40,311 bases of DNA from a virus (UHGV-1329780), one strand, 5' to 3'. Positions 1-40,311 are shown, counted from the first letter of the stretch. Notes: generated from the letters alone by a model not told the origin. Numbers and translations: made by a program.

Positions 1-2184
1 CACGCCTTTTTTCGCCATCACACCAGCGTAATAATCCTTTGCGATCTCGTATGCCATTGATGCGCCCTGAGCGTCACCAGCAAATGCATCCTTCACCATG
101 TCAGAAAACTCAAGGCGAAGATCAGCATCTTTAGGCATCGGAATACCTTTCGCATCATCAGTACCTTTACGAGCCGCCGCGCCAGCAAGAATTGTCTGCG
201 CAGCGGTTTCAGGAGACACGGAAACATCCGGATTAAACCAGTTTTTTTCTGCCAAAATACCACCAGGCTTATCCATCAGTATCCCGGCAACGGCAGCAGA
301 TGGAGCGTTGGCACTGATCTGCTGTAGTGCTGACATATACACCTGCCCACCACCAGTGCTCTGCCTGATGGTATCGAGATATGCTGCCTGTTGGGAAACT
401 GGAGCATCACGAAAGAAAACACCGATCTGATTGGCCTCGTCTTTGGAAAAGAACGTCAGTGGAGTGCCATATGACTTAGCAAGGTCACTGACCTGAGCGG
501 CACGCAAGGCAACGCTCTGTCCAAAGTTATCCTTATTGCTCATGTCGATAGGCTTTGCCTGTCCGGAGGCAAGAGAGAACTGCACAGGATCCGACTGCCG
601 CTGCTTTATCACCTGATTTGCAGCCGAAACAACGTTGTCATAAAGAGTTGCGCGTGCCGCATACCCCTCCCCTGTATCACCAGTATCCGGGCGTAATTGC
701 TCAACATATGCTGTAATGCTGCTTGTCGGCATGTTGCGGAAAGAGCCTATATACTGTCCGGCGATCTGCGTATTCTTAAACTCGGTATATCGCAGGTTTC
801 CTTCTCTGACTCCATAAGCTGCAATAAAATCATCCTCACCAGGTGGGTTAGGAAATTCAATGCCACGCATATACGCAGCCGTCGCATCGCGAACCCGGCT
901 GTCGAGCATCGTTTTATATTCAGCCTGCTGTTGTCTGGCTAGTGCATCAGTCTGTCGCAACACGCTGGCCTGATCTGATTCACTTAAAGCATCGAACCAG
1001 GCTACACCGGTATAACGTTTATTTTTTGTCGGTAGCTGAGAAAGCCCCAGCGCAGCACTAACACCTGCAGTTAACTGCTGATCACTGTATGGCTGGCTAC
1101 CGTTTTCATGATGGATAATGGCTGCACAAAGCGCCTTCAGGGTATCAGGATTTGATGCATCGAGAGGCTCATCAGCAGAAACGCCAAGTTGTTCGCACAC
1201 TGCTTTGATATACGACATAGTGTCATTTTTATCAGTAGGCGGTGCCCAGCGATTAATTATCTCGCTGACGGTATCAATACCCTGCCGCTGATACGACATC
1301 AGGTTCCGCCCTAATGCACGAATACCGTGTTCAGGGGTTTCGAATTTGGCAAAGCGACCATCATCACCAGTCTGCCCAACCCACGGATTAGTTTTGCTGT
1401 ATTCAAGATTGCCGGGGTTATTGTTGCGTATACCGCGGGTACGATCGGAAGAGCCACTATCTGCTACAGCACGGCGAGAACCAGCAGCAGTATCGCTTAA
1501 CTCGCCGTTTTGCTGTCTTACCTGAAGATAGTTTGCTCCAATAGCATTTTGAGCAGTTGCTTTTGCTGTTGCTTCTTTAAACTCGATTTTCTTGGCCTGG
1601 ATTTGCTCGTCACTCCAGCCATGTGCAATGCCGTAATCCTCAATTTGCTGGAAAGTTTGCTTATTAGCCAATACGTATGCGGCGTTGTCGCCATACAATG
1701 CTGCGGCATTTTTACCATTGTTCAGCAGCGTAGCCTGAAACTGGCCTTCTTCGTAGGCATTTATTTGCCCTATCTCGTGCCGCCCGGCCTGCGTAGTGAA
1801 CTGAATGCGCTGCTGCTGCGCCTGCTGCATGAAAGCATTACGAGCCTGTTCATCCGGCAGCGACATAGCCAGTTGTTCGACCTGAGCATCAAACTGCTGC
1901 GTATACTCCTGACCTTTTCCAATAGCATTTTTCCCTTTCAGGTTAAGCAAACCTGTTTCAGGGTTATTCAGCAGATCGCTGCTTATCTGGCTTAAGCTAA
2001 GAGAAGCATCCTGAGCCATAGCAACATTCGCACGCTGTTTTGCCTGCGCAATAATACCTGCATATTGCTCTGCAACATCGCCAAGTACATCACCGACATT
2101 TGGTGTCTGAAACGATGAGAATCCCTGCGTCGAAATCCCTCTGCTCTGAACCTGACGGCCCGATGTTGTTGGTACAACTGGCAT
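1..2184 (-). CDS. Internal virion (ejection/core) protein, N-terminal ~728 codons; 3' end runs off the window start
   Basis: Uninterrupted minus-strand frame from ATG at 2182-2184 (AAGGGG RBS upstream) to position 1, not listed in the ORF track because it has no in-window stop. Conserved-looking block TRGIRNNNPGNLEYSKTNPW at about 1381-1440. Sits after two small internal proteins in a podovirus-like core module. Confidence 0.6.
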   Translation of the reverse strand, partial: MPVVPTTSGRQVQSRGISTQGFSSFQTPNVGDVLGDVAEQYAGIIAQAKQRANVAMAQDASLSLSQISSDLLNNPETGLLNLKGKNAIGKGQEYTQQFDAQVEQLAMSLPDEQARNAFMQQAQQQRIQFTTQAGRHEIGQINAYEEGQFQATLLNNGKNAAALYGDNAAYVLANKQTFQQIEDYGIAHGWSDEQIQAKKIEFKEATAKATAQNAIGANYLQVRQQNGELSDTAAGSRRAVADSGSSDRTRGIRNNNPGNLEYSKTNPWVGQTGDDGRFAKFETPEHGIRALGRNLMSYQRQGIDTVSEIINRWAPPTDKNDTMSYIKAVCEQLGVSADEPLDASNPDTLKALCAAIIHHENGSQPYSDQQLTAGVSAALGLSQLPTKNKRYTGVAWFDALSESDQASVLRQTDALARQQQAEYKTMLDSRVRDATAAYMRGIEFPNPPGEDDFIAAYGVREGNLRYTEFKNTQIAGQYIGSFRNMPTSSITAYVEQLRPDTGDTGEGYAARATLYDNVVSAANQVIKQRQSDPVQFSLASGQAKPIDMSNKDNFGQSVALRAAQVSDLAKSYGTPLTFFSKDEANQIGVFFRDAPVSQQAAYLDTIRQSTGGGQVYMSALQQISANAPSAAVAGILMDKPGGILAEKNWFNPDVSVSPETAAQTILAGAAARKGTDDAKGIPMPKDADLRLEFSDMVKDAFAGDAQGASMAYEIAKDYYAGVMAKKGV

Positions 2185-2196
2185 CTTATTATCCCC

Positions 2197-2736
2197 TTAT
2201 CGACCGGTTGGAGTGCCAACAGCAGCAGAAATCGGCGCAGCCTTCTGAGAGAACGGGCTCCACGTTCCGCCGCCCATCTGGTATGCGCCGTATGCTTTTA
2301 GTGGTGCCGTTAACAAAGTGCTGGTCATCGATGATTTAGCAGCCGACTGAGCAGCAGCCCCCTGTGCCTGAGCATTCATTCCCTGAACCTGATACCCATA
2401 TGCCTCACGCTGAGCATTATTCACTGTCGTTAACGCATCAAGAGTGCCGAACTGAGCATTATCCGCAAAAACGTCAAGAGCTGTTCCGCTACTTAATTCC
2501 GCACCGGTAGCCCCCATAGTGGCCGCCGCAGTGCCTGAGCGTTGACGCATTTCACGACGACGCTGATCCGCTTCAATATTCCCACGATTGATTGAATCCT
2601 GTGCCTGAGCTTCAGCAATTTCAGCATTCCGATCAGCTATGGCTGACTGGTATTTTGCCTGCTTGCTCTGGCTGTACATTGACGCGGCTGTGGATGCCAC
2701 TGTGACGGCAACCAAAGCGATGGCTGGGTTACACAT
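2197..2736 (-). CDS. Small internal virion protein with N-terminal hydrophobic segment
   Basis: 179 aa; GGAGAG RBS; TAATG overlap with the upstream gene; N-terminal AIALVAVTVASTAA hydrophobic stretch and Ala/Gln-rich body; position equivalent to T7 gp14. Confidence 0.45.
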   Translation of the reverse strand: MCNPAIALVAVTVASTAASMYSQSKQAKYQSAIADRNAEIAEAQAQDSINRGNIEADQRRREMRQRSGTAAATMGATGAELSSGTALDVFADNAQFGTLDALTTVNNAQREAYGYQVQGMNAQAQGAAAQSAAKSSMTSTLLTAPLKAYGAYQMGGGTWSPFSQKAAPISAAVGTPTGR

Positions 2737-3200
2737 TATTTTCTCTCCATGTGAAATCTGTGGAAATTAAGACCAAGAGCACCATAAGGCGCGGCTTCTT
2801 CAAGCCTGAATCCAAGCCAGTGCAGCCATGCTTTGGCAACATGGTTTCGCTCGTCGACGTAGTTTTCCAGGCGCGGATAAACTGCCAGCATCTGCTGCAA
2901 TACAGGGCGGCAGTGGCGAAGAAATGTCTTCTGATATTTTTCAATACGGCTGGTTCCTACCAGCCAGGGCGTACCATTGCCACCGATCATTGACGCCGGA
3001 GATACGCCAAACATGGTTACCAGTTCTCCGTTCGCAAATCCTGACCAGGCCATAGTCGCAGTACGCAGACCAACACGCAGCGCATCTTCGGTAGTCATCA
3101 GTGATACCGCATACAGTTCGTCAATATCAGCCTGACGAACATCCGGCAAAATCATCTGAAGATGCTCTTCGGTTGCGGGAATAATTTGAACATCAATCAT
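2736..3200 (-). CDS. Virion/assembly protein of unknown function
   Basis: 154 aa; start codon overlaps the stop of the 823-aa gene (translational coupling) inside the structural operon. Confidence 0.4.
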   Translation of the reverse strand: MIDVQIIPATEEHLQMILPDVRQADIDELYAVSLMTTEDALRVGLRTATMAWSGFANGELVTMFGVSPASMIGGNGTPWLVGTSRIEKYQKTFLRHCRPVLQQMLAVYPRLENYVDERNHVAKAWLHWLGFRLEEAAPYGALGLNFHRFHMERK

Positions 3201-5671
3201 CAGAACCCACCAACAGTAAGGCGAGGAATAACGGCAAGAACAGACAGCGGCAACGGATCAAGCTGACGGATTTTTACACGTCCGTTTTTGCCCCAGTTAC
3301 TGTCCAGTTTCACTTCTACTTTTCCGGTAGCATCATCAACAGGATCATCGTAGAACTCGAATTCACGCTGTGGATATTCGTACCATTTACCGCCGGGCGT
3401 AGTCGCCCAGATGCCGCGACTGGCATTCACAACCAGAGTAACGGACGGGATCACCTGTTTTTTGTCCAGCAGCGTTTCCTGTCCGTTAATGTTGATATCC
3501 AGTGTTTCGAATTCAGCAGTTATTGGCAGGCCGATGTGCACAACAGCCCCCGGTGATTCCAGCGTGACGGCACCTCCGGAAACCACTTTTTGTGGTTCCA
3601 CGTTCGCATCAGAGAGGATGTTTACGGTCTGGCCTTCAAGATGAGACAAGCCGCCAAATGTCCGGCGCGCCATCTGCCAGTTCGTGGTGGCCACATTCCT
3701 GAGGGATGGCGGGACGTTCCTGTTAGCACGAACCACTACTGCGGTATTGCTGGTTACAGAAATAATGTCGCAACGTAATTCTTTTGACACTTCATCGCCA
3801 GTATCAGGATCAGCTCCGGTATAAGGGAACTGTAGTTGCGCACCAACATCACTACTGGTGAAGTACGCACCACCAGAAACACTGATTGTATATTCCGCGT
3901 GGTAATCCCATTCACCAGAACCACCAGTGATGGTCATCGTTCTGTCAGACGTATTTCTTCCATCATAGCTAAGGCCAGAATCAACAAAGAAAGCATCTTC
4001 ATCGCTGGTAAATAAACGGCTGGACAGTCTCTCGATGTATCTCACTGTTTGCCCGTTAACGGTTCTGTTAACGACGAAATACACCGCATCTTCATTGCCT
4101 TCGCTGATACTGCATGTGCTTTCATATTTTCCGGTACTGGATTGTGGTGCCCATGCAAAAACCTGCTGATCACGCAAATAGGTCATCACCAGTAATTTAC
4201 CGTCATCACGAATGCAGAAGGCACTGGAGTAAGGGACAATCGAGAAGCACCAGTCAACAATGCTGTGCTTCTGAAAAAGATGATTGGCAAGGATAGTAAG
4301 GTCGTTCCCCTGATAGCCGTCAACATCGAATGAATAGGCCAGATCACGGACAACACTGCCTTTCTCCTGGACGAACAGAGCAATATTCGCCACGGCAATT
4401 GGTGGGACATTGCTCGAGCCATTTGATCCCTGAGAGCTGAATGCAAATGATGATGGGGTTAACACTTTGTTCTGGTCGCCGGTGATGACGTACTCACCTC
4501 CGGAAGTCAGCGCCACCAGAGAACCAACATCAATCAGGTGGCGGATCTCATTAACCTGACGCCCGGCATAGGTGTAGATAATTCTGTCGTCATCCTGCGT
4601 AGGATTGCTTTTGCCAAAATCCTTATAATCCCCGGTACGGCTGGCCCAGATAGTCTGAGGGAACGCAGTCGATGCGGCGAAGTAAAGACGCTGTTGATAA
4701 TAAACAACAGTGCCAGGATAACCATTAACACTGTTCCAGGCATATTTAGCCCATTTATAGCTGGCATTATCCTCGCCAACGACCTGCGAAGGGATATAGG
4801 AAATCACCTCAGCAGTTGCAGTAGTGCCATTTACAGCAGTTATACGGGCAATGCCAAAACCACTGTGCAGATACTCCCACTCAATACCAGTATCATCATC
4901 ACCGGAGCCGCCCCAGCCATCCCATGATGTGCCTTCTGTATGCGAAGGGCGCAAAGTGCCTGTTTTGCCTGCTGTAACGGCGCGATAGTAGTTACTGTCT
5001 GCACGGCGAATATCGCCAATCGACGTACTCTTACTGGTTTCCCATACCGGTACTGAATCCACTGCTGGCTGTTCCAGATAGAACAATTTGCCTACCTGCT
5101 CCGCGCCAAAAATAGAGGCGCTTGCCGTTAACGTAATTGTCCCGGTGCTGGCGCTGGCATAAACCGTCACTGACTCGTCAATATTGATATCTTCAAATGG
5201 CCCGTTCTTCGTTACCACATCAACCAGTTGCCAGTTGTCATGCGCATAGCGGCGCAACTCTTTCGGCGGGTATGCCGGATGAACCAGCGTAAGCACGTCT
5301 GCGCTTTGCGTGAATTTAATTCTGAACAGATCGGCTTCAGTATATGGCGTGGCAATTTCATAAATAACATTGCTGCTGTTCAGCACCAACGCACCATCTT
5401 TGATAACGCGCATGTACTGGTGTCCGAACTCCAGAGCATAAGTCTGAACCGTCGAGAACTGGAACGGGATCAGGCGGCATTTCCGATTTGGGTATTTGGC
5501 GGCACCGACAAAACGCGTACCAGGTCGATTCTCAACGCCGCCATACTGCCGCACGATAAAGTTATCGCACTTGCGCAATGCCACCTGGTACTTCGCCATG
5601 TCGATACGTCCGTACAACGACGGTCCAATCTCACCACCAGCAAAGCTGGGCTGGATCCAACTGATAGCCAT
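3200..5671 (-). CDS. Tail nozzle / tail tubular protein B-like protein
   Basis: 823 aa, directly downstream of the adaptor-like gene; size and position match the T7 gp12-class nozzle protein. Assignment is by synteny and size, not motif. Confidence 0.5.
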   Translation of the reverse strand: MAISWIQPSFAGGEIGPSLYGRIDMAKYQVALRKCDNFIVRQYGGVENRPGTRFVGAAKYPNRKCRLIPFQFSTVQTYALEFGHQYMRVIKDGALVLNSSNVIYEIATPYTEADLFRIKFTQSADVLTLVHPAYPPKELRRYAHDNWQLVDVVTKNGPFEDINIDESVTVYASASTGTITLTASASIFGAEQVGKLFYLEQPAVDSVPVWETSKSTSIGDIRRADSNYYRAVTAGKTGTLRPSHTEGTSWDGWGGSGDDDTGIEWEYLHSGFGIARITAVNGTTATAEVISYIPSQVVGEDNASYKWAKYAWNSVNGYPGTVVYYQQRLYFAASTAFPQTIWASRTGDYKDFGKSNPTQDDDRIIYTYAGRQVNEIRHLIDVGSLVALTSGGEYVITGDQNKVLTPSSFAFSSQGSNGSSNVPPIAVANIALFVQEKGSVVRDLAYSFDVDGYQGNDLTILANHLFQKHSIVDWCFSIVPYSSAFCIRDDGKLLVMTYLRDQQVFAWAPQSSTGKYESTCSISEGNEDAVYFVVNRTVNGQTVRYIERLSSRLFTSDEDAFFVDSGLSYDGRNTSDRTMTITGGSGEWDYHAEYTISVSGGAYFTSSDVGAQLQFPYTGADPDTGDEVSKELRCDIISVTSNTAVVVRANRNVPPSLRNVATTNWQMARRTFGGLSHLEGQTVNILSDANVEPQKVVSGGAVTLESPGAVVHIGLPITAEFETLDININGQETLLDKKQVIPSVTLVVNASRGIWATTPGGKWYEYPQREFEFYDDPVDDATGKVEVKLDSNWGKNGRVKIRQLDPLPLSVLAVIPRLTVGGF

Positions 5672-6276
5672 CAGGACAACCTCGCAATGGTAAACTCATC
5701 AACCGGTGGCTGAGGTTCCTGTGATTCATTCTGGCTATGCGAGCCAGCACTAAGAATCACGCGATTGTACATATTGAGGGCAAACGTACCGAGGTCTGCA
5801 TTCCCAGTCAGCGCCATGTTAATAGCTGCCGCAAGACGCCAGGCCAACGCCTCCATAAAAATGGCATCAAACATGTTCACATCTGAAACGCGAGAGACAT
5901 ACTTGAGCCATGCCTGCGGCTGGTCTGTGTAGATCAATTTTCCTGTTCCGTTGGTGTCTGCACCAACTTCGTACTGAACGCGCATTGCTGTTGTTGGATT
6001 GCGTACACCAGGAAGCATAATTTCAGTAATGCGCAGACAATCGGACGGGTACTGGTACGCATATTCCCAGTCAGGCGGTGGATTGTTCGTATCTGCAAGC
6101 ACCACGCGTTTGGTAGCAAAGTTCCAGTCAAAATCAGAAAGCACAGCATCACGGCAGGCCTCAAAGTGCAGTGAACATTCCCCCGCTTCCTTGCTGGCTT
6201 CCGTCAGGCTGTTAATGCTGCGGCTATTGCCAATATTGGACAGCGCACGATTGCAGATCTCTACTACAGAGGCCAT
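5671..6276 (-). CDS. Tail adaptor / tail tubular protein A-like protein
   Basis: 201 aa; N-terminal ICNRALSNIGNSRSINSLTE...DFDWNFATKR resembles by eye the T7 gp11 N-terminus ([23 protein letters not shown]...GWTFNIEE); correct position between head genes and nozzle. Confidence 0.5.
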   Translation of the reverse strand: MASVVEICNRALSNIGNSRSINSLTEASKEAGECSLHFEACRDAVLSDFDWNFATKRVVLADTNNPPPDWEYAYQYPSDCLRITEIMLPGVRNPTTAMRVQYEVGADTNGTGKLIYTDQPQAWLKYVSRVSDVNMFDAIFMEALAWRLAAAINMALTGNADLGTFALNMYNRVILSAGSHSQNESQEPQPPVDEFTIARLS

Positions 6277-6995: not shown

Positions 6996-7433
6996 TTAAC
7001 CAGTTACTTTTGAGCGGATCGGGTACGGCGTATTGGCATCAACATCCAGACTGATACCCGCAGTGAATTTGCCGGCCGTTAGTGGGCCAGTTGCGACGGA
7101 GTAGTTAACACGCAGATATCGCTGAACACCGGCTGGCACCTTTGCAGAAACAACTCGCTTACCTGCTGTCAGGGTGGCCTTTGCCAACGCACCACTATCA
7201 TAAATAGTGGTCCAAGAGCTGTTATTCTCACTCGTCTGCAACTGGATGTTTACAGTTGCCTCACCACTTGCCGTGGCGGCTTCGTTAACCAGCCCCCAAA
7301 ACTCAAGCGGGTAACCCACACCGATATCGCGACGGTTTCCATCAATTGGACCGAGATCGATTACGTCAGTAGAAGCCGCGGTATCAGTTACCGCCTGAGC
7401 TTCGGAGAACATCAACAGTTTGTCGGTGATCAT
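6996..7433 (-). CDS. Putative capsid decoration / head accessory protein
   Basis: 145 aa, Thr/Ala/Gly-rich beta-like composition, immediately downstream of the major capsid gene. Confidence 0.4.
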   Translation of the reverse strand: MITDKLLMFSEAQAVTDTAASTDVIDLGPIDGNRRDIGVGYPLEFWGLVNEAATASGEATVNIQLQTSENNSSWTTIYDSGALAKATLTAGKRVVSAKVPAGVQRYLRVNYSVATGPLTAGKFTAGISLDVDANTPYPIRSKVTG

Positions 7434-7484: not shown

Positions 7485-8477
7485 TTACACCACGCGGGCT
7501 TCTGTTTCCAGAAGCGCATCAGTTTCACGGATTGGTACACCACGGAATGAAGTCCACCACTCGCCTTCTGTCTCTTTTACGCTGATCGCCAGAGATGTTT
7601 TCTCCAGAGATTGCAGATCAAGAGCCTGTCCTACAGTGCGGTTCATGTAGAACACCGGGCGACCCATGCCACGATTTGGAATGCGATGCAGTGCTTTAAC
7701 CATCAACTTCGCAATATTTGCGGCAGAGGAAGGTTCTGAAAGATTGCTGACATCGATGTTTGCAATGCGAACAACATAACGCCAGTCACGCAGAGCAAGT
7801 CCGTTGTCCCATTTGTAATGGGTACGGTAGCCTTCGTACTTGCCGCCATTAGCATCTTCCAGTGTCACCTGGCCTTTATCTTCCATCTGAATGCCAGCCT
7901 TCTGCCCTTTCGGGAAGATGCCATGCACGGTGTTTTCGCCCCACACCACTAACCAGATTGAGGTGTTATCTGTACCCGTGCCACCAGCATCAATGATGTT
8001 CTGAGCATTACCTGCAGACAGGCTGGAATAGCGGGAGGACAGTCCCATAAACTGCTGAGGGTTAACGCTGGAATCACCATAAAACAGCGTCTGCGCCATC
8101 TGCTGATTCATCGCTTCAATAAATGCGCGGTCTTCAGACAGGCGGAATTCGGCGGTATTGCCGTTCAGATCAGCCAGTGACTTATCGACTTCAGCATAGG
8201 TTTCCAGCATGCCAACGGAATCGGTTACCTGCACTGTGGTTGATTTGCTTGGCTGTACGCCATAGTTCAGCAAACGCCAGGTAGCTGAAGGTAAACCAGA
8301 ACGAATGGTGGTTCGGTGTCCGGTAGGAAGGTTCCCTTCGACAAAAGGCATATCCTGAAGGATCGGGTTAGTTTGACCGAGAAGCTCGATAATCTTATCG
8401 ACTTTCCCGTTTGGATCGACGCGCTTACCCCAGTCAGCCAGCGTTAGCGCAGTTAAGCCTTTAACAGCCATTGTCAT
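7485..8477 (-). CDS. Major capsid protein
   Basis: 330 aa, directly downstream of the scaffold-like gene and upstream of the decoration-like gene; size typical of compact HK97-fold capsid proteins of small podoviruses. Confidence 0.6.
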   Translation of the reverse strand: MTMAVKGLTALTLADWGKRVDPNGKVDKIIELLGQTNPILQDMPFVEGNLPTGHRTTIRSGLPSATWRLLNYGVQPSKSTTVQVTDSVGMLETYAEVDKSLADLNGNTAEFRLSEDRAFIEAMNQQMAQTLFYGDSSVNPQQFMGLSSRYSSLSAGNAQNIIDAGGTGTDNTSIWLVVWGENTVHGIFPKGQKAGIQMEDKGQVTLEDANGGKYEGYRTHYKWDNGLALRDWRYVVRIANIDVSNLSEPSSAANIAKLMVKALHRIPNRGMGRPVFYMNRTVGQALDLQSLEKTSLAISVKETEGEWWTSFRGVPIRETDALLETEARVV

Positions 8478-8485: not shown

Positions 8486-9187
8486 TTATTTGCCATAGAG
8501 CACTTCGGCCGCACTACGCTGGCCTTCATTACCACCGGTGACCATGCCATCTTCAGACATCGCCTTTCCGATTTTCACGAACGTTTTGACCAGATCAGGG
8601 TGATTACCCAGCCCGGTGGTGTTCAGATATTCTTTGAGTTCAGGTGTCCCGAACTGGTCAAGCGCACGCTGTGCGGCGCTAAGGTTAGAAATCAACTTGT
8701 CGCCACCGATTTCTTTGTCAGCTTTTACATCAGCAGCCCACTGCTCGGTTGTTTTCTGCCAGGCTTCTGCCTGGCGCTGCTGCACACCTGCCAGAATCTT
8801 CGGATAAGCATCAACCAGCTTTTGCGCTTGCTCGTTGGTCAGGTTAAGTTCTCGCGCCACCGGCTCGAACTCCTTCAGCGCTTCTGTATCCAGCTCTACG
8901 CCTTCGGCAGCCTGAAACTCGTACTTCTCAGGCGCACCCTCTGGTTTATCGCCGTCCTTTTTTTCATCCTGCTTATCGTTTTCAGGATTTTTGTCATCAG
9001 CAGGTTTATCGCCATCAGCAACAGGTTGTGGCTTATCACCTTCCTGTTGTGATGGATCACCAACTGGAGCAGGGTTATCACCTGCAGGTGCTGACGGTTC
9101 TGACGCAGCCGGAGCTGCTCCACCATCGACTGGTTGCTCATTGCAAAGACGGCGATACAGCAAACGCTCAAATAAATTCATGATCAC
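8486..9187 (-). CDS. Scaffolding protein
   Basis: 233 aa, strongly acidic with a Pro/Ala/Asp/Lys-rich low-complexity N-terminal half and helical C-terminal half; lies between portal and capsid genes. Confidence 0.55.
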   Translation of the reverse strand: MIMNLFERLLYRRLCNEQPVDGGAAPAASEPSAPAGDNPAPVGDPSQQEGDKPQPVADGDKPADDKNPENDKQDEKKDGDKPEGAPEKYEFQAAEGVELDTEALKEFEPVARELNLTNEQAQKLVDAYPKILAGVQQRQAEAWQKTTEQWAADVKADKEIGGDKLISNLSAAQRALDQFGTPELKEYLNTTGLGNHPDLVKTFVKIGKAMSEDGMVTGGNEGQRSAAEVLYGK

Positions 9188-9480
9188 TCCTGTTCACTGG
9201 CCTCTTTGGCCATCTTCAAATACTGTTCAGGGCAATGCGCCATAACGCGCTGAAACAGTTCCAGCGCCAGATTGCGTTGCCCCTCATTAAATGCCATTGC
9301 CATAGCGTCCATCGGTGAGATAGCGGAAAACACCCGGCCTTTCTCCAGCACAGACCAGACAACGCGACGCCCCTGTTCACTGCTCATGACAAAGCGAATG
9401 TCATCAATTTCACGCTGGGCCATGTCACGTTGCTTACGGGCGTTTTCTTCTTTCAGTTGATCATCTTCGTAATCTGTCAT
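9184..9480 (-). CDS. Hypothetical head-module protein
   Basis: 98 aa, overlaps the portal stop and the scaffold start. Confidence 0.4.
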   Translation of the reverse strand: MTDYEDDQLKEENARKQRDMAQREIDDIRFVMSSEQGRRVVWSVLEKGRVFSAISPMDAMAMAFNEGQRNLALELFQRVMAHCPEQYLKMAKEASEQE

Positions 9481-14987: not shown

Positions 14988-14994
14988 AACCACC

Positions 14995-15026
14995 GTGGTA
15001 ATAGTTACCGTTGTGGTAATAGTACC
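14995..15026 (-). repeat. Tandem direct repeat GTGGTAATAGT(T)ACC x2 just upstream of the terminase small subunit start
   Basis: Copies at 14995-15009 and 15013-15026, between an intrinsic terminator and the terS start; candidate late-promoter or regulator binding site. Confidence 0.4.
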
Positions 15027-28934: not shown

Positions 28935-29232
28935 GTTTAGACCTCGATACTTTAAAAATTTGAACGACGTTACCGCGCGTTTTAATAACCGCAGCCAGCA
29001 TGACAGCGTTGATAATGACCTCAGATAAATCCACAGCCATTGGCGTACGTAACCAGATTGCATAGGCGACTCGAACAGGAATACTGGCCGCAGCAACAAT
29101 CAGGAAATAAGCAAGCCATCCTCCCCACCTTCGATGTTGAGAGCCGTTACGCCGGAATGTGACAACGCGAATTGCTATGCCAGTGCAAATAACTGCATTG
29201 GTGATAAGCAAAAAAAACTCATGCGTTACCAT
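28924..29232 (-). CDS. Holin-like small membrane protein
   Basis: 102 aa with 2-3 hydrophobic helices and a charged C-terminus; immediately upstream of the endolysin. Confidence 0.5.
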
Positions 29233-29904: not shown

Positions 29905-29931
29905 CCCGCAAAATATTGCGGGCTTTTTTTT
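29905..29931 (+). terminator. Hairpin plus T8 tract at the tailspike 3' end (terminator-like on the plus strand)
   Basis: CCCGCAA-AATA-TTGCGGG followed by C and T8 on the plus strand, overlapping the tailspike stop codon region; preceded by an AT-rich 280-bp intergenic segment. Confidence 0.45.
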
Positions 29932-32900
29932 AACGTTCTTCCAGAGACTGAATCCGCTCTTTTATCTTATCCATTTCTCTGCGCTGCCATGCTGCCTCGA
30001 TATAGAATAAGAGATCAGGTCTGACCCCCCATCTAGATCCTGCTGGCGTTATTTCAACGCGCTCAATGATGTCTTCCATTACCATCACTGGATTATCATC
30101 CTCATCAACAATGATGCTCCCGTCATTATCAGTCAGCGGCATTTCCCTTTGGCCAGTAATGACATCATCATATACTGCGGGATAATCGTCATAGCAAAGA
30201 AAGGCATAGCGGCATGTTGTGCTTTCTTCTTCCATGAGTCCGTGAGAAATAAGAACATCACGAAGTTGCTGCGCGATTACACCATGATGTATCCTCGCCC
30301 CTTCTTCCCCCTTTATAGCGACAGCGTTCAGCCATTTATAAGCGATATACCTGACGTCACCCCAGGCATCCAGCAATGCTTCGTCAGGAGAGACCGGCTC
30401 TGTCTTTAATGTTCCGTCACTGGTAACCACAGGATTGGAGCCAAGATAAACTGTCGAGAACCTGTTTCCCGGACCACCAAGAGCATTTACATTATCAAGA
30501 TAAGGTTTAACATCTCCGTTCTCAAAAAGATGTTCGAGTGCGTTATATACCGCGCGACGTGGAGTACTGCTTCCGGAACCATGCAACGTTATCATTGCAC
30601 CATCTGCTGAAGACGTTGTTTCACCGCCGCTAACGATTAATCTCTGAGCGGTAACATCATCAGACGGTACTTTCTTCGCAATAATGGCGTAATTACCCTC
30701 AAGTTTGACTTCCGCGCGAACTTGTCCTGATGTACCTGCATGGACAGTCAGTGACTGGACGGCAACATCATCTGTGAAATCAACGGGTACAGGAACCGTC
30801 CTCACGCCTGACGTCGACATAAAAGTAGGAAGCGTTCTGTTAGGAGTGGCTCCGTAGACAAAATCCCTTGAAACAAATTCTTCCTGTTTAATTTTCACCC
30901 TGAAACAATACAAATCAGCCGGGTGACCATCGTGAACATAAGGATATTTTCTGTTGTTATCCCCTATGCTCCATGGGTTTAGAAAGTCTTCCCCACCGAA
31001 AATGTAGTACAGCCAGTTGTCTTTGATACAAACTGAACCAACACCAACCGCAGAGTTAACTATTCCGCCCTGATAAATCTGATCAGTAACATTAACCCAC
31101 TCTACATTATCCAGACTCCACTCATTGACGTTAACTCTGGTCATAAATGTTCTTGGATAATTTCCTGCATAACGGTTATCAGGTTCTCCTCCTTCCCACT
31201 CACCAAATGCGCGCTCACTGCCAAAAATAATCAGCTCATCGCCAACTTTGGCAAAAGGAAGGTTTGAGTGATGAACATTATTTGGGAAGCGAAGAGAATT
31301 CCATGATGTACCTAAATCAGAGCTTCTGTGCAATGAACTACCGGGTTGAGTACTTAATGTCCCCCTGGTCGTCAGATACAGAATGCCATCATAATATTTT
31401 ACACATGGCTCAGATGCATTCGCCTCATATTCTGCAGGTATGCGTCTGCGAACAAAGCTACCAGGAGAACCGAAAGCATCAGAGAAATAGAGTATCCCAA
31501 GCTCGCGTGGACCAATATCACCATTATGGTAGCCAACAGCAAAACTGTTATCGCTAATCGTCGCAAAACTGTGAATCTCAGTAACAGGAGTGCTTCCGTC
31601 AACAAAAGAAGGAATAGTTCCAAGACTGGTTTTTCTCCATGGTGACGAGTGAAATGATGTACCAAAACTCCAGTATCTACCCTCGTTATTCTGATCCACA
31701 TCCTGGGTATTTTGCGTCGTAACTGTAAAAGTATTTTTATCAATAACAGTAGTCACCGTCATATTCCCGGTAACACCTGTAACACCAGAGTTTGAGAAGT
31801 TGACAAAATCACCAGCAAATAATCCGTGATCAGTAATGCGAATATAAGCGACTTGCTGATTTGCTGCTTTCGTTATACCACCATAAACGCGAAGGCTGCG
31901 ACTCATTGGGCGATCCCACAACTCTGCAACCTGCAGTTTATTTCCGCTCACGGTCCGCGTCTCAATTACAGCAAAAAGGCGATTTCTGACAACCCCCATA
32001 CTCATGCAGTGATAGTTAACTGTGGGATAGTTTTCATGTAAATCTGTAAGCCATTCCGGCGTTGTCCAGGTCTTCCCGTCATCTCCTGAGCGAACCCATG
32101 CAACATGGAGGTTATTTACACCATGGCGGTCTCCAGCCATAAAAGGCGCATAGATGACATTGTCATATACAAACGTTTTATCCTGCGTCCAGGCGTTGTA
32201 CCACGGTGTATCTGTAATTTTAAATAACTCTCCCTGGATAAAATCTTCAGAAGCATAAAAAAGAGGCTGGCCCGGTATTCTCTCAAATAAAAAACGAGCA
32301 TTTTTAAATCGACTGACATCCGGAAGAGTTGATACTTTAAAAGTAAGCCCTAATCCGTCAATTTTATAACCTGGAGATGAGGCTTCAAGGCACGCGCTTA
32401 TTGCAGTGGAATCGTCATTTATACCATCACCAACAGCTCCAAAATCTTTGGGGCTAATAGCATCACGCATTTTATCCTGGAACGTTCGGTACACAGCCCC
32501 AGAACCATACTGAATAAACCAACCAAAACCACCAACAACCCCGGCGATTGCAGCATCGACATAATTACGCATTGAGCGATTATTTACAGCGTCCTGCTCA
32601 AATGATGGATCTGCAAGGTTAGAAATTTTGTTTTGCTTTGCATCGTAATATTTTGCAAGCAAAGATGGTTTCATCAATGCACGTCTGAACCACCCAAAAC
32701 ATTGCTGGATCAGCATCGTCAGGTAGTCAAAGGCATCTTCATGCACTTCGGGGAAAAATTTTCCCTGATTGCGAAGGTCTGTCTCCTGCACTACATCAAG
32801 CACACGATCTATCGTAATTCGCCATCCAGTAGCAAGCGGAGACGGAAGAACCACAGAACCGCCACTATAAGTGCCCGCCCCAGTTACCGTATAACCGGTA

Positions 32901-33049
32901 TCCAGAACCAATTCTGTTACGTTTCCGTTCAGGTCAGACACCTGAACAACCAGGTCTGATTTTCTGAAAATTCGAAAAGTATACGGAAACGATGTCGTAA
33001 CGCCGTTACCGGTGTATTCGTTGTGGTCAACTTCGGTTGAGACCGTCAT
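29930..33049 (-). CDS. Tailspike protein with Asp-box (sialidase-like) motifs and C-terminal intramolecular-chaperone-like domain
   Basis: 1039 aa; GGAG RBS; N-terminal particle-binding-type domain; DFGAVGDGINDDSTAI motif; Asp-box-like SGDDGKTW and SSDLGTSW; C-terminal segment with HHGVIAQQLRDVL resembling self-cleaving chaperone domains of endosialidase-type tailspikes. Confidence 0.7.
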   Translation of the reverse strand: MTVSTEVDHNEYTGNGVTTSFPYTFRIFRKSDLVVQVSDLNGNVTELVLDTGYTVTGAGTYSGGSVVLPSPLATGWRITIDRVLDVVQETDLRNQGKFFPEVHEDAFDYLTMLIQQCFGWFRRALMKPSLLAKYYDAKQNKISNLADPSFEQDAVNNRSMRNYVDAAIAGVVGGFGWFIQYGSGAVYRTFQDKMRDAISPKDFGAVGDGINDDSTAISACLEASSPGYKIDGLGLTFKVSTLPDVSRFKNARFLFERIPGQPLFYASEDFIQGELFKITDTPWYNAWTQDKTFVYDNVIYAPFMAGDRHGVNNLHVAWVRSGDDGKTWTTPEWLTDLHENYPTVNYHCMSMGVVRNRLFAVIETRTVSGNKLQVAELWDRPMSRSLRVYGGITKAANQQVAYIRITDHGLFAGDFVNFSNSGVTGVTGNMTVTTVIDKNTFTVTTQNTQDVDQNNEGRYWSFGTSFHSSPWRKTSLGTIPSFVDGSTPVTEIHSFATISDNSFAVGYHNGDIGPRELGILYFSDAFGSPGSFVRRRIPAEYEANASEPCVKYYDGILYLTTRGTLSTQPGSSLHRSSDLGTSWNSLRFPNNVHHSNLPFAKVGDELIIFGSERAFGEWEGGEPDNRYAGNYPRTFMTRVNVNEWSLDNVEWVNVTDQIYQGGIVNSAVGVGSVCIKDNWLYYIFGGEDFLNPWSIGDNNRKYPYVHDGHPADLYCFRVKIKQEEFVSRDFVYGATPNRTLPTFMSTSGVRTVPVPVDFTDDVAVQSLTVHAGTSGQVRAEVKLEGNYAIIAKKVPSDDVTAQRLIVSGGETTSSADGAMITLHGSGSSTPRRAVYNALEHLFENGDVKPYLDNVNALGGPGNRFSTVYLGSNPVVTSDGTLKTEPVSPDEALLDAWGDVRYIAYKWLNAVAIKGEEGARIHHGVIAQQLRDVLISHGLMEEESTTCRYAFLCYDDYPAVYDDVITGQREMPLTDNDGSIIVDEDDNPVMVMEDIIERVEITPAGSRWGVRPDLLFYIEAAWQRREMDKIKERIQSLEER

Positions 33050-33548: not shown

Positions 33549-33639
33549 ATTTACATCGCACTCCTCTTGTGCCATAGTAATCGGGCACTGGCAAAATCCA
33601 GTGCCGGGATTGGCGTCCCGGGTTACTAAGTGGCGCATA

Positions 33640-33661
33640 CCACGCCAGACGTGGTTTTTTT
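33640..33661 (+). terminator. Intrinsic terminator/attenuator between the two antirepressor-like genes
   Basis: CCACG-CCAGA-CGTGG hairpin followed by T7; preceded by two further hairpins. Confidence 0.6.
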
Positions 33662-33817
33662 ATGCGTTAAGCACAGCTATATCCGAATTATGGTGGGCTG
33701 GGCAGGGGTCCGAAAGGACGCCGGTACCACTTAGGCCGGTACGCCAACCTTGTCCAGTTCACCACCAGTAATTGGCGTTGCGGTGGTGATTAAAATCACT
33801 AAGTGGAGATAACCACC

Positions 33818-34528
33818 ATGGCTAATGCTCAAACTTCCATCTTCAAATTTGAATCTGTTAACCCTATCCGTTCCATCATTATCGATGGCCAACCATGGTT
33901 TGTAGCCCAAGACGTTTGTAGTGCGCTGCGTATCCAAAACGTCACCCAAGCACTTGAAAAACTGGATGATGATGAAAGGTCTATGTTCAACATAGGGCAT
34001 GAACATCGTGCAATTTTTGACAGCCGAGTAAAAGAGATCAACATCATCTCCGAGTCAGGCCTCTACACACTGATCCTCCGCTGCCGCGACGCAGTGACAC
34101 CAGGCACTATCCCCTACCGCTTTCGTAAATGGGTTACGGGTGAGGTTCTTCCTCAGATCCGCCGCACCGGAAGCTACATTAAAAACTCGCTCCCGCAGGA
34201 AGAACGCATAAAGATGGTTGCCGACCAGGTAGCCAACGCCACGGCGTCAGCAGTAATGCAGGCGATGAAGATAGAGAACAAAACCTACAGCGCCCCACTG
34301 AAGCCCGGCTACCGCAGCCTGATTCATTCGCCGTCTGGTGTTCTCGGCCTGACGGAGAACTCACTGCTGATGAATCTGCTGAACCAGTTACAGGACGACG
34401 GGCACGACGTATCGGGCGCGGCGGCGGAGCTGACCACCATGTTCTGCTACATCGTCGGTGTGAGCAAATGCCTGCGTGATATCCAGACCCACGCGGAATA
34501 CATCAACGACAAGGCAGGGTTCTTCTGA
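33818..34528 (+). CDS. Bro-N domain antirepressor-like protein
   Basis: About 236 aa from ATG 33818 (GGAG RBS); N-terminal FKFESVNPIRSIIIDGQPWFVAQDVCSAL...ESGLYTLIL is a typical Bro-N pattern; C-terminal domain paralogous to the small protein at 33245-33502. Confidence 0.7.
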   Translation: MANAQTSIFKFESVNPIRSIIIDGQPWFVAQDVCSALRIQNVTQALEKLDDDERSMFNIGHEHRAIFDSRVKEINIISESGLYTLILRCRDAVTPGTIPYRFRKWVTGEVLPQIRRTGSYIKNSLPQEERIKMVADQVANATASAVMQAMKIENKTYSAPLKPGYRSLIHSPSGVLGLTENSLLMNLLNQLQDDGHDVSGAAAELTTMFCYIVGVSKCLRDIQTHAEYINDKAGFF

Positions 34529-35702: not shown

Positions 35703-38177
35703 TTATTGCGGAGTGACATCCTGTGGTCGCCACCAGTATGTCTGGTTAAACTCTTTCTTCGAACGTTGCTCCATTTTACGCAAATAACCTGGTGAAAAAT
35801 ACTCCTGCATCTGGTTAAAGATCATGTGATCGAGAGCCGCCTTCAAGTACCAGAGATTCGCACCTGGCATCAGACCTTTCCCCAGCTTAACCAGATCACC
35901 ACCAGTCTGCTCACTCTTCCCTTCCACAGCATTTAACGGTATGCCCTGAGCAATCTTCACTACGTCATCAACCAGACCAGCTACCGGGCCAAGCATCGAC
36001 GCCAGCGCGCCGCTTCCGTACCTAGTGTGATCTGACAATAAAAAGTCACCGTAAAGGCCAAGACCACCACCTTTCAGTAGAGCACCAAGCCAAAATTTAG
36101 CAGCATCTTCTCCTGTCATCTCGCGAGGATTACGACCAGACGCAAGGTCGTTAAGTTGCTGCGACAAAGCGCCAAGAATGGTCGTACTGGCAATAAACGT
36201 CGCAATATATGCCGCACGCCCACCAGCAGACGGCATACCCATAGCGCGTGACCAGTGACGCATAACCACCGAGATAGGGAACGATTTAAACAGGAAAACA
36301 CTTCTCGTTAATTCACCTTTCCATGTTCCACGCTGAATACCAGAACCGGTTATCAGTTGCTCACGTGCTCCCGGTGTAATAACAGCCATATCAACTTCTT
36401 CAGTTACGGCACCGAGCAGTTTACGCATTGCCTCAAATTTCACGCGTTCAGGCTCACCAAGATGTTTAACTGCTGAATCAGGGATACGCATAATGCTTTC
36501 CGGTGTCAGCATCGTATTATTACCGTTCCCCCAGTCCTCCTGTTTCGCCAGCTTCCATACGCTCCAGTCTGTGTCAGTAATCCCTTTGCTTTTCAGGATA
36601 CGAAAATCAGAGTCATCGAGGCTACGAAGGTCTGGTGTACGTGACACTACTTCTCCCAGGCTTCCCATCATGGTTACGCCATAGGCGCGCTTGTGCGCAT
36701 CTGACCATGCTGTAAGCCCACTGGCACGCATTACCGCCGTTGCCGCCCAACGAGACACTGACGGCCCCATATTATCCATCGCCCAGCGGTTAACGCTGCC
36801 AAGTAGAGATTCCATCGCCAGACCAGCGCGGCGCGCCCGCGCAAGTTCTGTACGGTTCGTTGGGTCCATAGCTTCAAGCTGGTTGCGGAATAACTGGTTC
36901 ATTGGAAGGTTGGTAACCTTCGCAGACAGATACATGGTTCCAAGATCAGAGAACGATGACAGCAACGCGGATCCGAGTCTGCTGGCAACCAGCCAGTTGC
37001 GGATATTGTCAGACCATCGCGCGATGTGCGGATTCGCTACAGGCTGTGTCTTTCCGGAAATAAAGTTGTACAGATTCTCTGTGTTGTTCGCCAGCCGCTC
37101 GACTTTACCGGTTTTACTCGGGTTAGCTGTTGCCGTTTCTGCCTTCACCTGATCAAGAAGAGAGCGGAAAACATGATCGGGGTTTGGGCCATATGTTTCC
37201 ACCAGTGCAATATCTTTACTGATACCTTCCAGGTGACCGACCATGATTTCCCATAGAGAGCGATCGCCATAAAGTTGCTGATATTGCAGATAGGAATCTG
37301 CATCTTTGAAATGTATCTGTCGTGATGCATTACCACGGTTAGCACGTGCGCCGGAAATTCGCATTCCGGTATCAGTAAGCTTATTCAGCCCACCAGTAGC
37401 GATCGTGTTATAAGCCTCTCCAAGAAATGAAGACAACTCGGCATCGTTCATCAGTTGTCCATCGGCTCGGATATAATATTTGCGATCCAGCTTACCTATA
37501 ACATCGCTAACCCACTTATCCTTTGATACTGCCCCAACCTTTTCCATAGAATGATGTTGAGGGATCCCCCAGTTTTCGAGATAGCCAATGTCCCCACCAG
37601 CATCATTAAACCGGCGGCGCAGCAGCTCTGTAACTTCTCTCCACGCCTTAGCACCGTTTCTTGCTTTAGCATTGCCAGTATTTTGCCCCCGCATTTCATA
37701 TACCAGGTCACGTACGCCCGCTTCATCTTCAAACAGACCAAAAAAGCGAGGATCAACTGCTTCGAATGCCTCCTGCAATTGACTCAATGCATAATCACGG
37801 GTGGCTTTTGTTCTGGATTCAACAGAGAGGAAATTAGATTTACCGTCTGCATTAAAAGCTATAGTACGGTTAAGAGCGCCAAGTTTCCCATCAGCCCCTT
37901 GATAGCTATTGATAAATTTATCCAATCTCTGACGCGCGGCTATAGTGAGAGCCACACGACGTTTCTTTAATGCCGCTTCTCGCTGTAATTCTTCAGATGC
38001 CAATTGTGCTGCTCGATATAGCCGCTCTGATTCGGAAAGTTGTCTCCACGACATCGGGTCATCACGAGCAATGGAGCGCATATTTCGATAAATGCGGTCT
38101 TCAATGTTCTGTATTTCTCGCGCCGTTAACGTGCGCTGCGCCGCCTGCTGGACCGCTTGTATACATTCCTGTCTCAT
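35703..38177 (-). CDS. Large internal virion (ejection/core) protein
   Basis: 824 aa; last large gene of the core module, coupled to the upstream 600-aa gene; identity assigned by size and position. Confidence 0.5.
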   Translation of the reverse strand: MRQECIQAVQQAAQRTLTAREIQNIEDRIYRNMRSIARDDPMSWRQLSESERLYRAAQLASEELQREAALKKRRVALTIAARQRLDKFINSYQGADGKLGALNRTIAFNADGKSNFLSVESRTKATRDYALSQLQEAFEAVDPRFFGLFEDEAGVRDLVYEMRGQNTGNAKARNGAKAWREVTELLRRRFNDAGGDIGYLENWGIPQHHSMEKVGAVSKDKWVSDVIGKLDRKYYIRADGQLMNDAELSSFLGEAYNTIATGGLNKLTDTGMRISGARANRGNASRQIHFKDADSYLQYQQLYGDRSLWEIMVGHLEGISKDIALVETYGPNPDHVFRSLLDQVKAETATANPSKTGKVERLANNTENLYNFISGKTQPVANPHIARWSDNIRNWLVASRLGSALLSSFSDLGTMYLSAKVTNLPMNQLFRNQLEAMDPTNRTELARARRAGLAMESLLGSVNRWAMDNMGPSVSRWAATAVMRASGLTAWSDAHKRAYGVTMMGSLGEVVSRTPDLRSLDDSDFRILKSKGITDTDWSVWKLAKQEDWGNGNNTMLTPESIMRIPDSAVKHLGEPERVKFEAMRKLLGAVTEEVDMAVITPGAREQLITGSGIQRGTWKGELTRSVFLFKSFPISVVMRHWSRAMGMPSAGGRAAYIATFIASTTILGALSQQLNDLASGRNPREMTGEDAAKFWLGALLKGGGLGLYGDFLLSDHTRYGSGALASMLGPVAGLVDDVVKIAQGIPLNAVEGKSEQTGGDLVKLGKGLMPGANLWYLKAALDHMIFNQMQEYFSPGYLRKMEQRSKKEFNQTYWWRPQDVTPQ

Positions 38178-38182
38178 TTAAT

Positions 38183-39985
38183 TTAACCTCTCAAGAAACA
38201 CGCCACAGCGACATCAAACAGGCTGGAATCCTGTATTGCCTGCTCACTTTCCCTGTTCGCTTCATCCAGTACTTCACGCGCGCTGCGCGATTGTGGATTA
38301 CCATCATCATCCAGCACGGTGATTATCATGTCCGGATATTCAAGCAGCGAGTCTTCAGCTATACGCAGATCAATATCTCCTGCCGGATCTGCCATCATTT
38401 TTTGTTCTGTCTGTTGCAATATCTTACCGGGATCAAAAGGAGCTACTTCGTCTGGCGTCCTGACCTCTGCTGTTTTATAGAATGAAACAGCCTGAGCATT
38501 AAGTTCACTTTCTGCCTGCTGTCTCCGAGCCAGTTCTGCTCGAGCTTCAAAAAACTGACCGCCAGGCTCATGCGGTGCCAACGCGTTACGGGAAAATTCC
38601 AGGCGTTCTTGTGCCTGCCGGATTCGTTGGTCAATATCCCGAAGTCTGGCCTGTTTATCTGATCGAGCACGAGACAAAGCTTTACCGCTACCGGCTGGAT
38701 CTTCTGCAAGAATTTGTGCGCGCTGTTCAGTGAGATTTTCAATAATTCGTTGGCTATTAGCGATTTCAGACTGGTAAACCTGTCTATCGCCACGCGGCAA
38801 AAGCTGCGCGGCCTGTTCTTCAAGCAACCGATTTTCTATAGCGCGCGCCGTTACTCCATCATCTACAGATGACAGAGCCTCATTAACTGCCTGAGACAGC
38901 AGACTCTTGCGTCCAGGAATTTCACTGAAAGATGCAGACTCAACAATGCTGGCAACGTCTACAGGTCTCCCCTGGCTAACATCAGACATGGCTTTTCGCA
39001 GAGCCTGAATGTGCGAATTACGCGAAAGCACGTTGATCGGCACGCCGGGAGCAATATCAATTTCAGCATGATGAGCGGCATTCGCCGCCAGTGCAGCATC
39101 GATATCAACTGGTGAAAAATTTGGTGCGCTTGTAGACTCGCCGCGAGAGTTAATAAATCTGCCGACACCACCAAACGCCACCCCAAGAACAGCATCAATA
39201 GCAATTGCCTGTCGATCCAACACATCATACTGGTTAGCCATTTCGCTATAGCCACCATCACGAAGCGTTTTTGCAGTAAGCCCACGCTGTGCCATACCGA
39301 ACGCAATATTTGTACCTGCGGCATAGGCAATATCTGGCGTTGCACGTACTGCTGTTGCTGCGGCGCGTCGCACTGAACTTTCACCCGTCCGCGCAAGCTG
39401 AGCCGCCACACCTTCCGCCAGCGCACCACCAGCACGTAACCCGAGGCTCATAGGGATCAGTGTTCCGGCACCAGCAGTAATACCCTGCACTAATCCCGCT
39501 TCCTGCGCCGTCCTGAAATCAACACCCTGTGCTGTAAGCCGTTCAAACTCAGAAAAACCCTGTAGAGAAGTTACCGCCGCAGCACCTCCGACCGGACCAC
39601 CGAGCGTTGTACCGACAACAGCCTGCCCGCCCATATCGAACAACCCATAAAGGACCTGCCCGGCGGTTCCGGTTGTCGCGGCATCAGGCGTCAGCCGCTT
39701 AACCTGCTGCTCTGCTAGTTTTCTCTGCTCAGCAATGTATGAAACTGAAGTGTCATTGATCGAGGTGTTTTCGTTAACAAACTGAGCAATCGGGGATACG
39801 ATTTTATCCATCCCTGCCCATAGCAACTGATCTGGCTTTGCCACCAGCCCGGAGTACAAACCAGACAATGCCGCTCCTACAGCATTGTCGAAAAAACCAA
39901 CATCGCTGTTAAAGCCAGCTGGATTTGATGCTGCTTCGTCAAGCTGCTGATTCTGGTTTACTGGATTAAGGCCAAAGTAACTCAT
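38183..39985 (-). CDS. Internal virion (ejection/core) protein
   Basis: 600 aa; Ala/Gly-rich; ATGA overlap with the upstream gene. Confidence 0.5.
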   Translation of the reverse strand: MSYFGLNPVNQNQQLDEAASNPAGFNSDVGFFDNAVGAALSGLYSGLVAKPDQLLWAGMDKIVSPIAQFVNENTSINDTSVSYIAEQRKLAEQQVKRLTPDAATTGTAGQVLYGLFDMGGQAVVGTTLGGPVGGAAAVTSLQGFSEFERLTAQGVDFRTAQEAGLVQGITAGAGTLIPMSLGLRAGGALAEGVAAQLARTGESSVRRAAATAVRATPDIAYAAGTNIAFGMAQRGLTAKTLRDGGYSEMANQYDVLDRQAIAIDAVLGVAFGGVGRFINSRGESTSAPNFSPVDIDAALAANAAHHAEIDIAPGVPINVLSRNSHIQALRKAMSDVSQGRPVDVASIVESASFSEIPGRKSLLSQAVNEALSSVDDGVTARAIENRLLEEQAAQLLPRGDRQVYQSEIANSQRIIENLTEQRAQILAEDPAGSGKALSRARSDKQARLRDIDQRIRQAQERLEFSRNALAPHEPGGQFFEARAELARRQQAESELNAQAVSFYKTAEVRTPDEVAPFDPGKILQQTEQKMMADPAGDIDLRIAEDSLLEYPDMIITVLDDDGNPQSRSAREVLDEANRESEQAIQDSSLFDVAVACFLRG

Positions 39986-40311
39986 TGCGGAATATCTCCG
40001 GAGAATCTCTGACGCTTCTGTGTCAGATTAAGAACAACGGGAGAACCATCATCTTTCAGCAGATAACCAGTACCAAGTTTCACCAGGTACTGACTATCGC
40101 CGTAACTTTGCAAACCATACTGACCAGGCGGTGTTTTTATCCCGGAGCCGACAACTTGTTCATTCCAAGCCTGATTAACCTGCTTATCGAATTGCTCTGC
40201 AGACATTCCCCACGGCAAAAGGACATTCCCCATTCCGTTATAGTCATGCACGCCACCTGTAGCTACGTTAACAGCCTGTTTCCAGACATCATTGTCAATT
40301 TCGCCTGATAC
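39982..40311 (-). CDS. C-terminal part of an internal virion protein whose 5' end runs off the window end (probably the same gene as 1-2184)
   Basis: The frame of ORF 39982-40251 stays open from 40251 to 40311 (the M at 40251 is an in-frame GTG, not a real start); codon phase at 40309-40311 is continuous with the codon at 1-3. Confidence 0.55.
   Translation of the reverse strand, partial: VSGEIDNDVWKQAVNVATGGVHDYNGMGNVLLPWGMSAEQFDKQVNQAWNEQVVGSGIKTPPGQYGLQSYGDSQYLVKLGTGYLLKDDGSPVVLNLTQKRQRFSGDIPQ

Follow-up and report, generated by a model that had tools for sequence, protein, structure and literature searches.

UHGV-1329780 is a viral DNA sequence of 40,311 nucleotides, and the whole of it is referred to here as the window. 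Both of its ends lie within partial reading frames of the minus strand, which an initial annotation had proposed to be the two parts of a single gene of about 837 codons, interrupted by the point at which the circular genome of a temperate phage had been opened. This spanning gene encodes a predicted internal virion protein orthologous to epsilon15 gp15 and phiV10 p18. In this study, we describe the join between the window ends, the attachment site and the gene content of the window, and we weigh the possible origins of the sequence. The putative role of the spanning protein and the relationship of the window to known phages are also discussed.

The gene across the window ends

On the minus strand, an ATG at 2184–2182 opens a frame of 728 stop-free codons that runs down to base 1, and the frame entering at base 40311 contains 109 sense codons before a stop at 39984–39982, both as initially annotated. 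The lowest codon coordinate is 1 mod 3 in each partial frame. Because the window length is divisible by three (40,311 = 3 × 13437), the two frames share one phase, and no codon is split by the joint, which follows residue 728. Joining the DNA in silico (39982..40311 followed by 1..2184) gives 2514 nt, which translate into 837 amino acids (aa) and one terminal stop; this stop and the start codon of the following gene overlap as ATGA. The probability of an 837-codon frame without a stop is approximately (61/64)^837, or about 4e-18, and that of the phase match alone is 1/3.

Beyond this arithmetic on frame and phase, we take the decisive support for the join to come from external records. The exact joined 837-aa sequence is known from 427 public contigs, including complete Escherichia coli chromosomes, and its 90%-identity cluster has 4,311 members. 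Compared with phage virion proteins, the joined product covers the phrog_992 (‘head protein’) profile from end to end and aligns with phiV10 p18, which is of equal length (837 aa), over residues 1–837 across the joint with 89.6% identity. By this homology, the end-to-start join restores a real, full-length gene.

The nucleotide sequence over the joint is equally continuous in other records. A 1429-nt query spanning it aligned by BLAST without gaps and in a single piece to 13 phage records and 314 of the 5,426 complete E. coli genomes, and it is 100% identical in four of the latter (IAI39, SCU-125 and two others); an exact 40-mer over the joint is present in 94 IMG/VR contigs. In whole-genome alignments, window 40311|1 corresponds to phiV10 14727|14726 and to 9995|9994 of the E. 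coli record pHL15EC-2. Conversely, the ends of the phiV10 record (1|39104) adjoin inside the window at 15105|15106, and the origin of pHL15EC-2 maps within the window at 10001. Related records have been opened at various points: phiV10 and epsilon15 upstream of the gene for the small terminase subunit (terS), phiv142-3 and HEMP4 at the core of the phage attachment site (attP), ZX5 near window position 35409 and pHL15EC-2 inside the portal region. These alignments show that the window ends abut without gap or overlap. That a gene runs across them is due to the point chosen for opening the circle, a way of writing the sequence out and no biological oddity. No terminal direct repeat of 8–399 nt was found at the window ends and no internal direct repeat longer than 30 nt in the window.

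The attP core mimics the last codons of host guaA and lies uninterrupted between int and Rz (27826–28308), and the window contains no host gene. The integrated relative in E. coli IAI39 starts at window position 27699, adjoining yfgI, and in many other genomes the int-side alignment ends at 27715 with guaA directly after it; the two flank alignments share 17 bp, AATCATTCCCACTCAAT. These are the reverse complement of attgagtgggaatgatt, the Uetakevirus-type attP core that goes with integration at the guaA 3′-end. This core has been verified as attP/attB by polymerase chain reaction (PCR) and Sanger sequencing for ZX5 and has been reported for phiV10 and epsilon15 (PMC9782041). Since the core is uninterrupted between int and Rz, we read the window as holding attP, neither attL nor attR, and the initial view that it is no prophage with host flanks is borne out at the very site where integrated relatives split into guaA and yfgI. 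A hairpin in the P arm of attP, AAAAACCCTCTGTAAAAACAGAGGGTT (27628–27654), matches host DNA flanking attL in IAI39 (L001 5636–5662) at 25 of 27 positions, and phage–host homology may reach past the 17-bp core. The hairpin is suspected to be the guaA terminator, which the phage would restore on integration.

Functions were assigned from PHROG and Pfam scans, and phiV10 counterparts by tblastn of all 55 phiV10 proteins (Table 1). The conserved phiV10 genes are intact, present in one copy each and in common circular order. The single-copy counterparts comprise, for packaging and the virion, terS, the large terminase subunit gene (terL), the portal, protease, capsid, cement and staple proteins, two tail proteins, the gp13-, gp14-, gp15-, gp16- and gp17-like proteins and the tailspike N-terminus. 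The others are two holins, the GH19 endolysin, Rz/Rz1, integrase, a methyltransferase, PerC, AlpA/Xis, the repressor, the Cro-like protein, the P-like loader and DUF1064. On the circle the modules follow the order terS, terL, portal, head, tail, core proteins, tailspike, lysis, attP, int, recombination, immunity and replication. As initially described, the structural genes at both window ends lie on one strand (all minus), and the packaging, head, tail, lysis, integration, recombination, immunity and replication modules occur once each. A temperate podophage is indicated by the integrase, excisionase and CI-like repressor, together with the PF12236 portal, the PF24072 core protein and the tail-tubular-type proteins. 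Podovirus morphology would follow from this portal, the PF24072 protein and the epsilon15-homologous tail proteins.

Table 1. Features of the 40,311-nt window, with coordinates, strand and basis of assignment
Feature	Coordinates	Strand	Basis or remarks
Spanning gene, N-terminal 728 codons	1..2184	-	epsilon15 gp15/phiV10 p18 ortholog, predicted internal virion protein; phrog_992 end to end; phiV10 p18 alignment
Peptidoglycan-hydrolase domain, residues 249–403 of the spanning protein	976..1440	-	PDB 9vvp_L, E=1.5e-40; 7q47, E=2.7e-19
T7 gp14-family internal virion protein	2197..2736	-	PF24072, 32.8 bits (cutoff 27); phrog_418
Internal virion protein, epsilon15 gp13-like	2736..3200	-	PHROG, phiV10 tblastn
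Tail protein, epsilon15 gp12-like	3200..5671	-	PHROG, phiV10 tblastn
Tail protein, epsilon15 gp11-like	5671..6276	-	NC_004775 label: T7 tail tubular protein A-like
Bbp16-family capsid cement protein	6996..7433	-	phiV10 tblastn
Major capsid protein	7485..8477	-	PHROG, phiV10 tblastn
Head maturation protease	8486..9187	-	PHROG, phiV10 tblastn
Portal, T7-type head-to-tail connector	9477..11156	-	PF12236, 624 bits
tRNA-Arg, anticodon TCT	11805..11881	+	
Low-GC moron, 272 aa	12104..12922	+	
Terminase large subunit	12919..14394	-	PHROG, phiV10 tblastn
Terminase small subunit	14391..15065	-	PF03592
Replication module	19288..20884	-	lambda P-like helicase loader 19288–20064; DnaT-like initiator 20036–20884
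Immunity switch, divergent	21208..22177		Cro-like 21208–21438 (-); CI-like repressor 21593–22177 (+)
Recombination module	22782..24713	+	RecE-like exonuclease 22782–23681; RecT 23691–24713
AlpA-type excisionase/regulator	24763..25011	+	
Tyrosine integrase (P4 type)	26258..27508	-	PHROG scan, phiV10 tblastn
attP core AATCATTCCCACTCAAT, 17 bp	27699..27715	.	overlap of attL and attR alignments; reverse complement of attgagtgggaatgatt
Lysis cassette	27826..29623	-	Rz-like spanin with embedded Rz1 homolog, GH19 endolysin, two holin/membrane proteins
Tailspike, full endosialidase domain set (K1 polysialic-acid capsule)	29930..33049	-	Pfam
RNA and antirepressor region	33585..34528	+	isrK-like small RNA 33585–33661; C4 antisense RNA 33686–33769; Bro-N antirepressor 33803–34528
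Virion proteins	35703..39985	-	gp17-like 35703–38177; gp16-like 38183–39985
Spanning gene, C-terminal 109 codons and stop	39982..40311	-	frame, join, p18 alignment, exact protein match

Completeness of the genome and packaging

We consider it highly likely that the window is exactly one unit-length genome (40,311 bp) from a temperate E. coli phage with a short tail that belongs to the phiV10/epsilon15 lineage, and that its circle was opened arbitrarily inside the 837-aa gene. The joined gene is real, the joint is contiguous elsewhere, attP is intact and the modules occur once each, in line with the complete temperate podophage genome initially proposed. Megablast groups the window with the phiV10/epsilon15-like phages of the genus Uetakevirus, with which it has a collinear set of structural and packaging genes in common, and on this basis we place it in Uetakevirus or at its immediate border.

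Several points weigh against this interpretation. Circular closure is deduced from the sequence and its relatives. Among the IMG/VR loci recovered with two window-specific 40-mers there is no near-identical contig, the best matches being partial (99.9% over 9.3 kb). The criterion of the International Committee on Taxonomy of Viruses for a genus is a nucleotide intergenomic similarity of at least about 70% to a member; the product of identity and coverage, measured in one direction, is 0.71 against phiV10, which is borderline. For the large terminase subunit (TerL), searches of PDB sequences and of Pfam (E≤0.001) gave no match. Finally, the literature searched contains no demonstration of headful packaging in phiV10 or epsilon15.

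Nearly all close database relatives are integrated (339 of the 5,426 E. coli genomes) and some have decayed, such as the IAI39 copy with its IS3 elements, so that the window might be taken for an integrated prophage flanked by host DNA on one side or on both, or for a defective or incomplete one. Such an origin is exceedingly improbable for a sequence that contains no host gene, has both ends in one phage gene, carries the conserved phiV10 genes intact and single, and retains an uninterrupted attP where prophages are split at 27699–27715 into guaA and yfgI flanks. We also give little credence to the window being a single unit taken out of a tandem (poly-lysogenic) array of prophages or a replicative concatemer. 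The cut would have to equal exactly one period, without overlap or gap and with the ends in phase, which is what is expected of circularisation and trimming by an assembler, and even then the content would still be one complete genome. A tandem array of this kind is nevertheless known: in E. coli GPEC403-625 (NZ_CM142769.1, locus L002 1–49137), a related prophage with an endosialidase is present twice in head-to-tail arrangement and repeats after 40,773 bp. The 8,364 bp of overlap that were compared hold no mismatches, and the int–attP–lysis junction between the copies is intact. This array represents either tandem polylysogeny at guaA or the assembly of concatemeric DNA. Similarly slight is the probability that the sequence stems from a free circular episome of the phage, and neither from virion DNA nor from a prophage. 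No partition or plasmid-replication gene was noticed among the open reading frames (ORFs) scanned, and the sequence lends no support to dedicated plasmid maintenance. Two complete E. coli genomes do, however, contain relatives as closed 41-kb ‘plasmid’ replicons; if true, a free episome would hint at extrachromosomal persistence of Uetakevirus-type phages in a carrier or pseudolysogenic state in K1 E. coli, the capsule of which is the substrate of the phage's own tailspike.

The unit-length genome that we favour is compatible with more than one form of virion DNA. The small terminase subunit (TerS) belongs to PF03592. Bacillus phage SF6 and Shigella phage Sf6 both package by headful. HHpred remarks in NC_004775 describe the epsilon15 TerS and TerL as similar to the terminases of these two phages. 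The contig of the relative Tyrion, which is 83% identical to the window over the joint region, is terminally redundant, and its ends were shown by PCR to be circularly permuted (PMC5754475). Given the permuted ends of Tyrion, the TerS family and the terminase similarities, headful (pac) packaging is probable for this phage by analogy with its relatives. A search of the literature on Uetakevirus packaging gave only the Tyrion PCR and a passing mention of headful packaging in a phiV10 reporter-phage paper. Headful packaging would generate terminally redundant, circularly permuted virion DNA, and assemblers would for that reason close the genome into a circle. The records of phiV10 and epsilon15 both start just upstream of terS, which may reflect a defined end or a convention, and the circle could be real even if virion DNA always terminates at defined sites (cos or short direct terminal repeats), the permutation then existing only in the file. 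We regard fixed ends as unlikely in view of the permuted, redundant Tyrion ends, the similarity to the SF6 and Sf6 terminases and the lack of a terminal repeat in the window; if present, they would affect only the inference on packaging. The initial description of the genome as ‘circularly permuted’ accordingly holds insofar as a circular map has been written out from another starting point, whereas permuted virion ends are suggested for this phage by its relative Tyrion.

Predicted role of the spanning protein

The spanning gene lies directly downstream of the gp14-family gene (PF24072) in the core-protein operon. Its peptidoglycan-hydrolase domain is of the PHA02564/Enc34 type, and its HHENGS motif places Glu360 opposite the glutamate of RHENGS in the Enc34 endolysin (7q47), in which Glu131 is the proposed catalytic residue (PMC8943055); Glu360 is therefore a putative catalytic residue. 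The joint, after residue 728, is far from this muralytic domain. The counterpart of the spanning protein in epsilon15, gp15, is annotated in NC_004775 as a head protein with lytic-transglycosylase-like similarity, and infection by epsilon15 is accompanied by the loss of its internal core and the formation of a tube across the envelope (reviewed in PMC8954989). From the domain match, the gp15 counterpart and this loss of the core, the spanning protein is most likely a capsid-internal, ejected muralytic protein and a functional analogue of T7 gp16-N. It would reside in the capsid core and be ejected at infection, and its muralytic domain would breach the peptidoglycan for a trans-envelope DNA channel.

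The sizes of the epsilon15 ejection proteins differ between sources. Table 1 of PMC8954989 lists gp11 with 229 aa, gp12 with 499 aa and gp13 with 708 aa, whereas NC_004775 gives 201, approximately 825 and 154 aa, respectively. The former values are near those tabulated there for P22-like phages and are probably a mix-up.

Relatives, tailspike and accessory genes

Among the megablast matches, no phage record covers at least 80% of either window half. The 64 Synechococcus phage matches were discarded, as they arise solely from approximately 90% identity to the tRNA-Arg over 68 nt (11805–11881). Among the closest relatives, Escherichia phage phiV10 (NC_007804) is circularly collinear with the window and has at least 40 genes in common with it, most at 95–100% amino-acid identity. 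Window and phiV10 agree fully in the terS protein and the attP core, their integrases are 98.8% identical and p18 likewise has 837 aa. The window differs from phiV10 in that the receptor-binding part of the tailspike is replaced by an endosialidase, the O-acetyltransferase gene (oac) is absent, and a separate exonuclease and RecT (epsilon15-type) take the place of the RecET fusion; the replication initiator, the nin-like region and the moron between portal and terL are also different. Epsilon15 (NC_004775), a Salmonella phage and the founding member of the genus, has the same module order, attP core and type of lysis cassette, but another tailspike, serotype-conversion genes and another host; the product of identity and coverage is 0.39 in this case.

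Phage ZX5 (vB_EcoP_ZX5, MW722083) resembles the window in being a temperate Uetakevirus-type phage with a confirmed attP core, integration at the guaA 3′-end and an endosialidase-type tailspike. It covers approximately 62–77% of the window at 97–98% identity, the early and nin regions being mosaic. The prophages of K1 strains (IAI39, CE10 and APEC O1) are likewise temperate, of the Uetakevirus type and equipped with an endosialidase-type tailspike, although the IAI39 copy, unlike the window, is disrupted by IS3 elements. The window is a new mosaic member of the phiV10/epsilon15 lineage, and an endosialidase on such a backbone has already been described for ZX5 (PMC9782041).

pHL15EC-2 (NZ_CP079771), a 41,027-bp circular ‘plasmid’ record from E. 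coli HL15, is phiV10-like and was deposited as a closed circle. It was opened within the portal-gene region and lists no portal coding sequence, which provides a precedent for a gene across the linearisation point, and a 272-aa gene beside terL occupies the position of the moron in the window. It differs in its GDSL esterase-type tailspike, acyltransferase, YafO toxin moron and opening point. Two such 41,027-bp circular, non-mobilizable ‘plasmid’ records from two complete E. coli genomes (NZ_CP079771.1, pHL15EC-2, and NZ_CP079768.1) are phiV10-like phage genomes carrying the GDSL-esterase tailspike, acyltransferase and YafO toxin gene, and are probably free phage circles mis-filed as plasmids.

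All of the tailspike domains score above cutoff, namely PF12217 (775 bits), PF12219, PF12195, PF12218 and PF13884. The layout consists of an N-terminal extension, a beta-propeller with an inserted beta-barrel, a stalk domain and a C-terminal S74 chaperone. The exact protein occurs on 243 contigs, the listed accessions of which include APEC O1, and is predicted to recognise K1-capsulated E. coli.

Between the portal gene and terL (11400–12922), the tRNA-Arg(TCT) and the 272-aa gene lie on the strand opposite to both. The 272-aa moron has a GC content of 0.40, and visual inspection of its product shows two hydrophobic stretches and a long tail resembling a coiled coil. It matched no Pfam family, and its exact protein is found on 137 contigs. 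PADLOC matches to the DndD, PbeC and LmuB models were weak (E of about 1e-5 to 1e-3), and these identities were rejected as attributable to coiled-coil composition. In relatives, this position is occupied by other cargo, including a Sf6 gp66-like gene and a Gp49-family gene. It appears to be a hot spot for morons, and the 272-aa product possibly has an exclusion or defence function.

Elsewhere, the isrK-like Hfq-binding small RNA (Rfam 67.7 bits, gathering score 50) and the C4 antisense RNA (66 versus 45) lie immediately upstream of the Bro-N antirepressor, both within 33585–33769 on the plus strand, and neither is annotated in the phiV10 or epsilon15 records. The c4–ant arrangement is that of P1/P7 immI. 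The layout in the window, being similar, suggests antisense-RNA control of the antirepressor by analogy. A 284-aa DUF551 protein (15711–16565, minus strand) recurs with identical sequence in P1/P7-like elements, which carry a P7-type C1 repressor, as well as in further contexts of lambdoid or P22-like type, an illustration of how nin-region genes pass between unrelated kinds of temperate phage. The ORF at 17192–17722 (minus strand) matches the PHROG ‘Mom-like DNA modification protein’ with E=3.6e-42, the Pfam Mom family remaining below threshold (23.6 versus 27.1 bits), and phiV10 has no counterpart of it.

The value of these results lies mainly in curation. The window is usable as a complete genome, its split end ORFs are to be merged into one 837-aa gene and, following phiV10, its start could be moved to a point upstream of terS (window 15105, minus strand). 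Biologically, it enlarges a well-described genus by a further mosaic member and opens no new question, and it confirms that K1-specific endosialidase tailspikes circulate on temperate phiV10-like backbones integrating at guaA.

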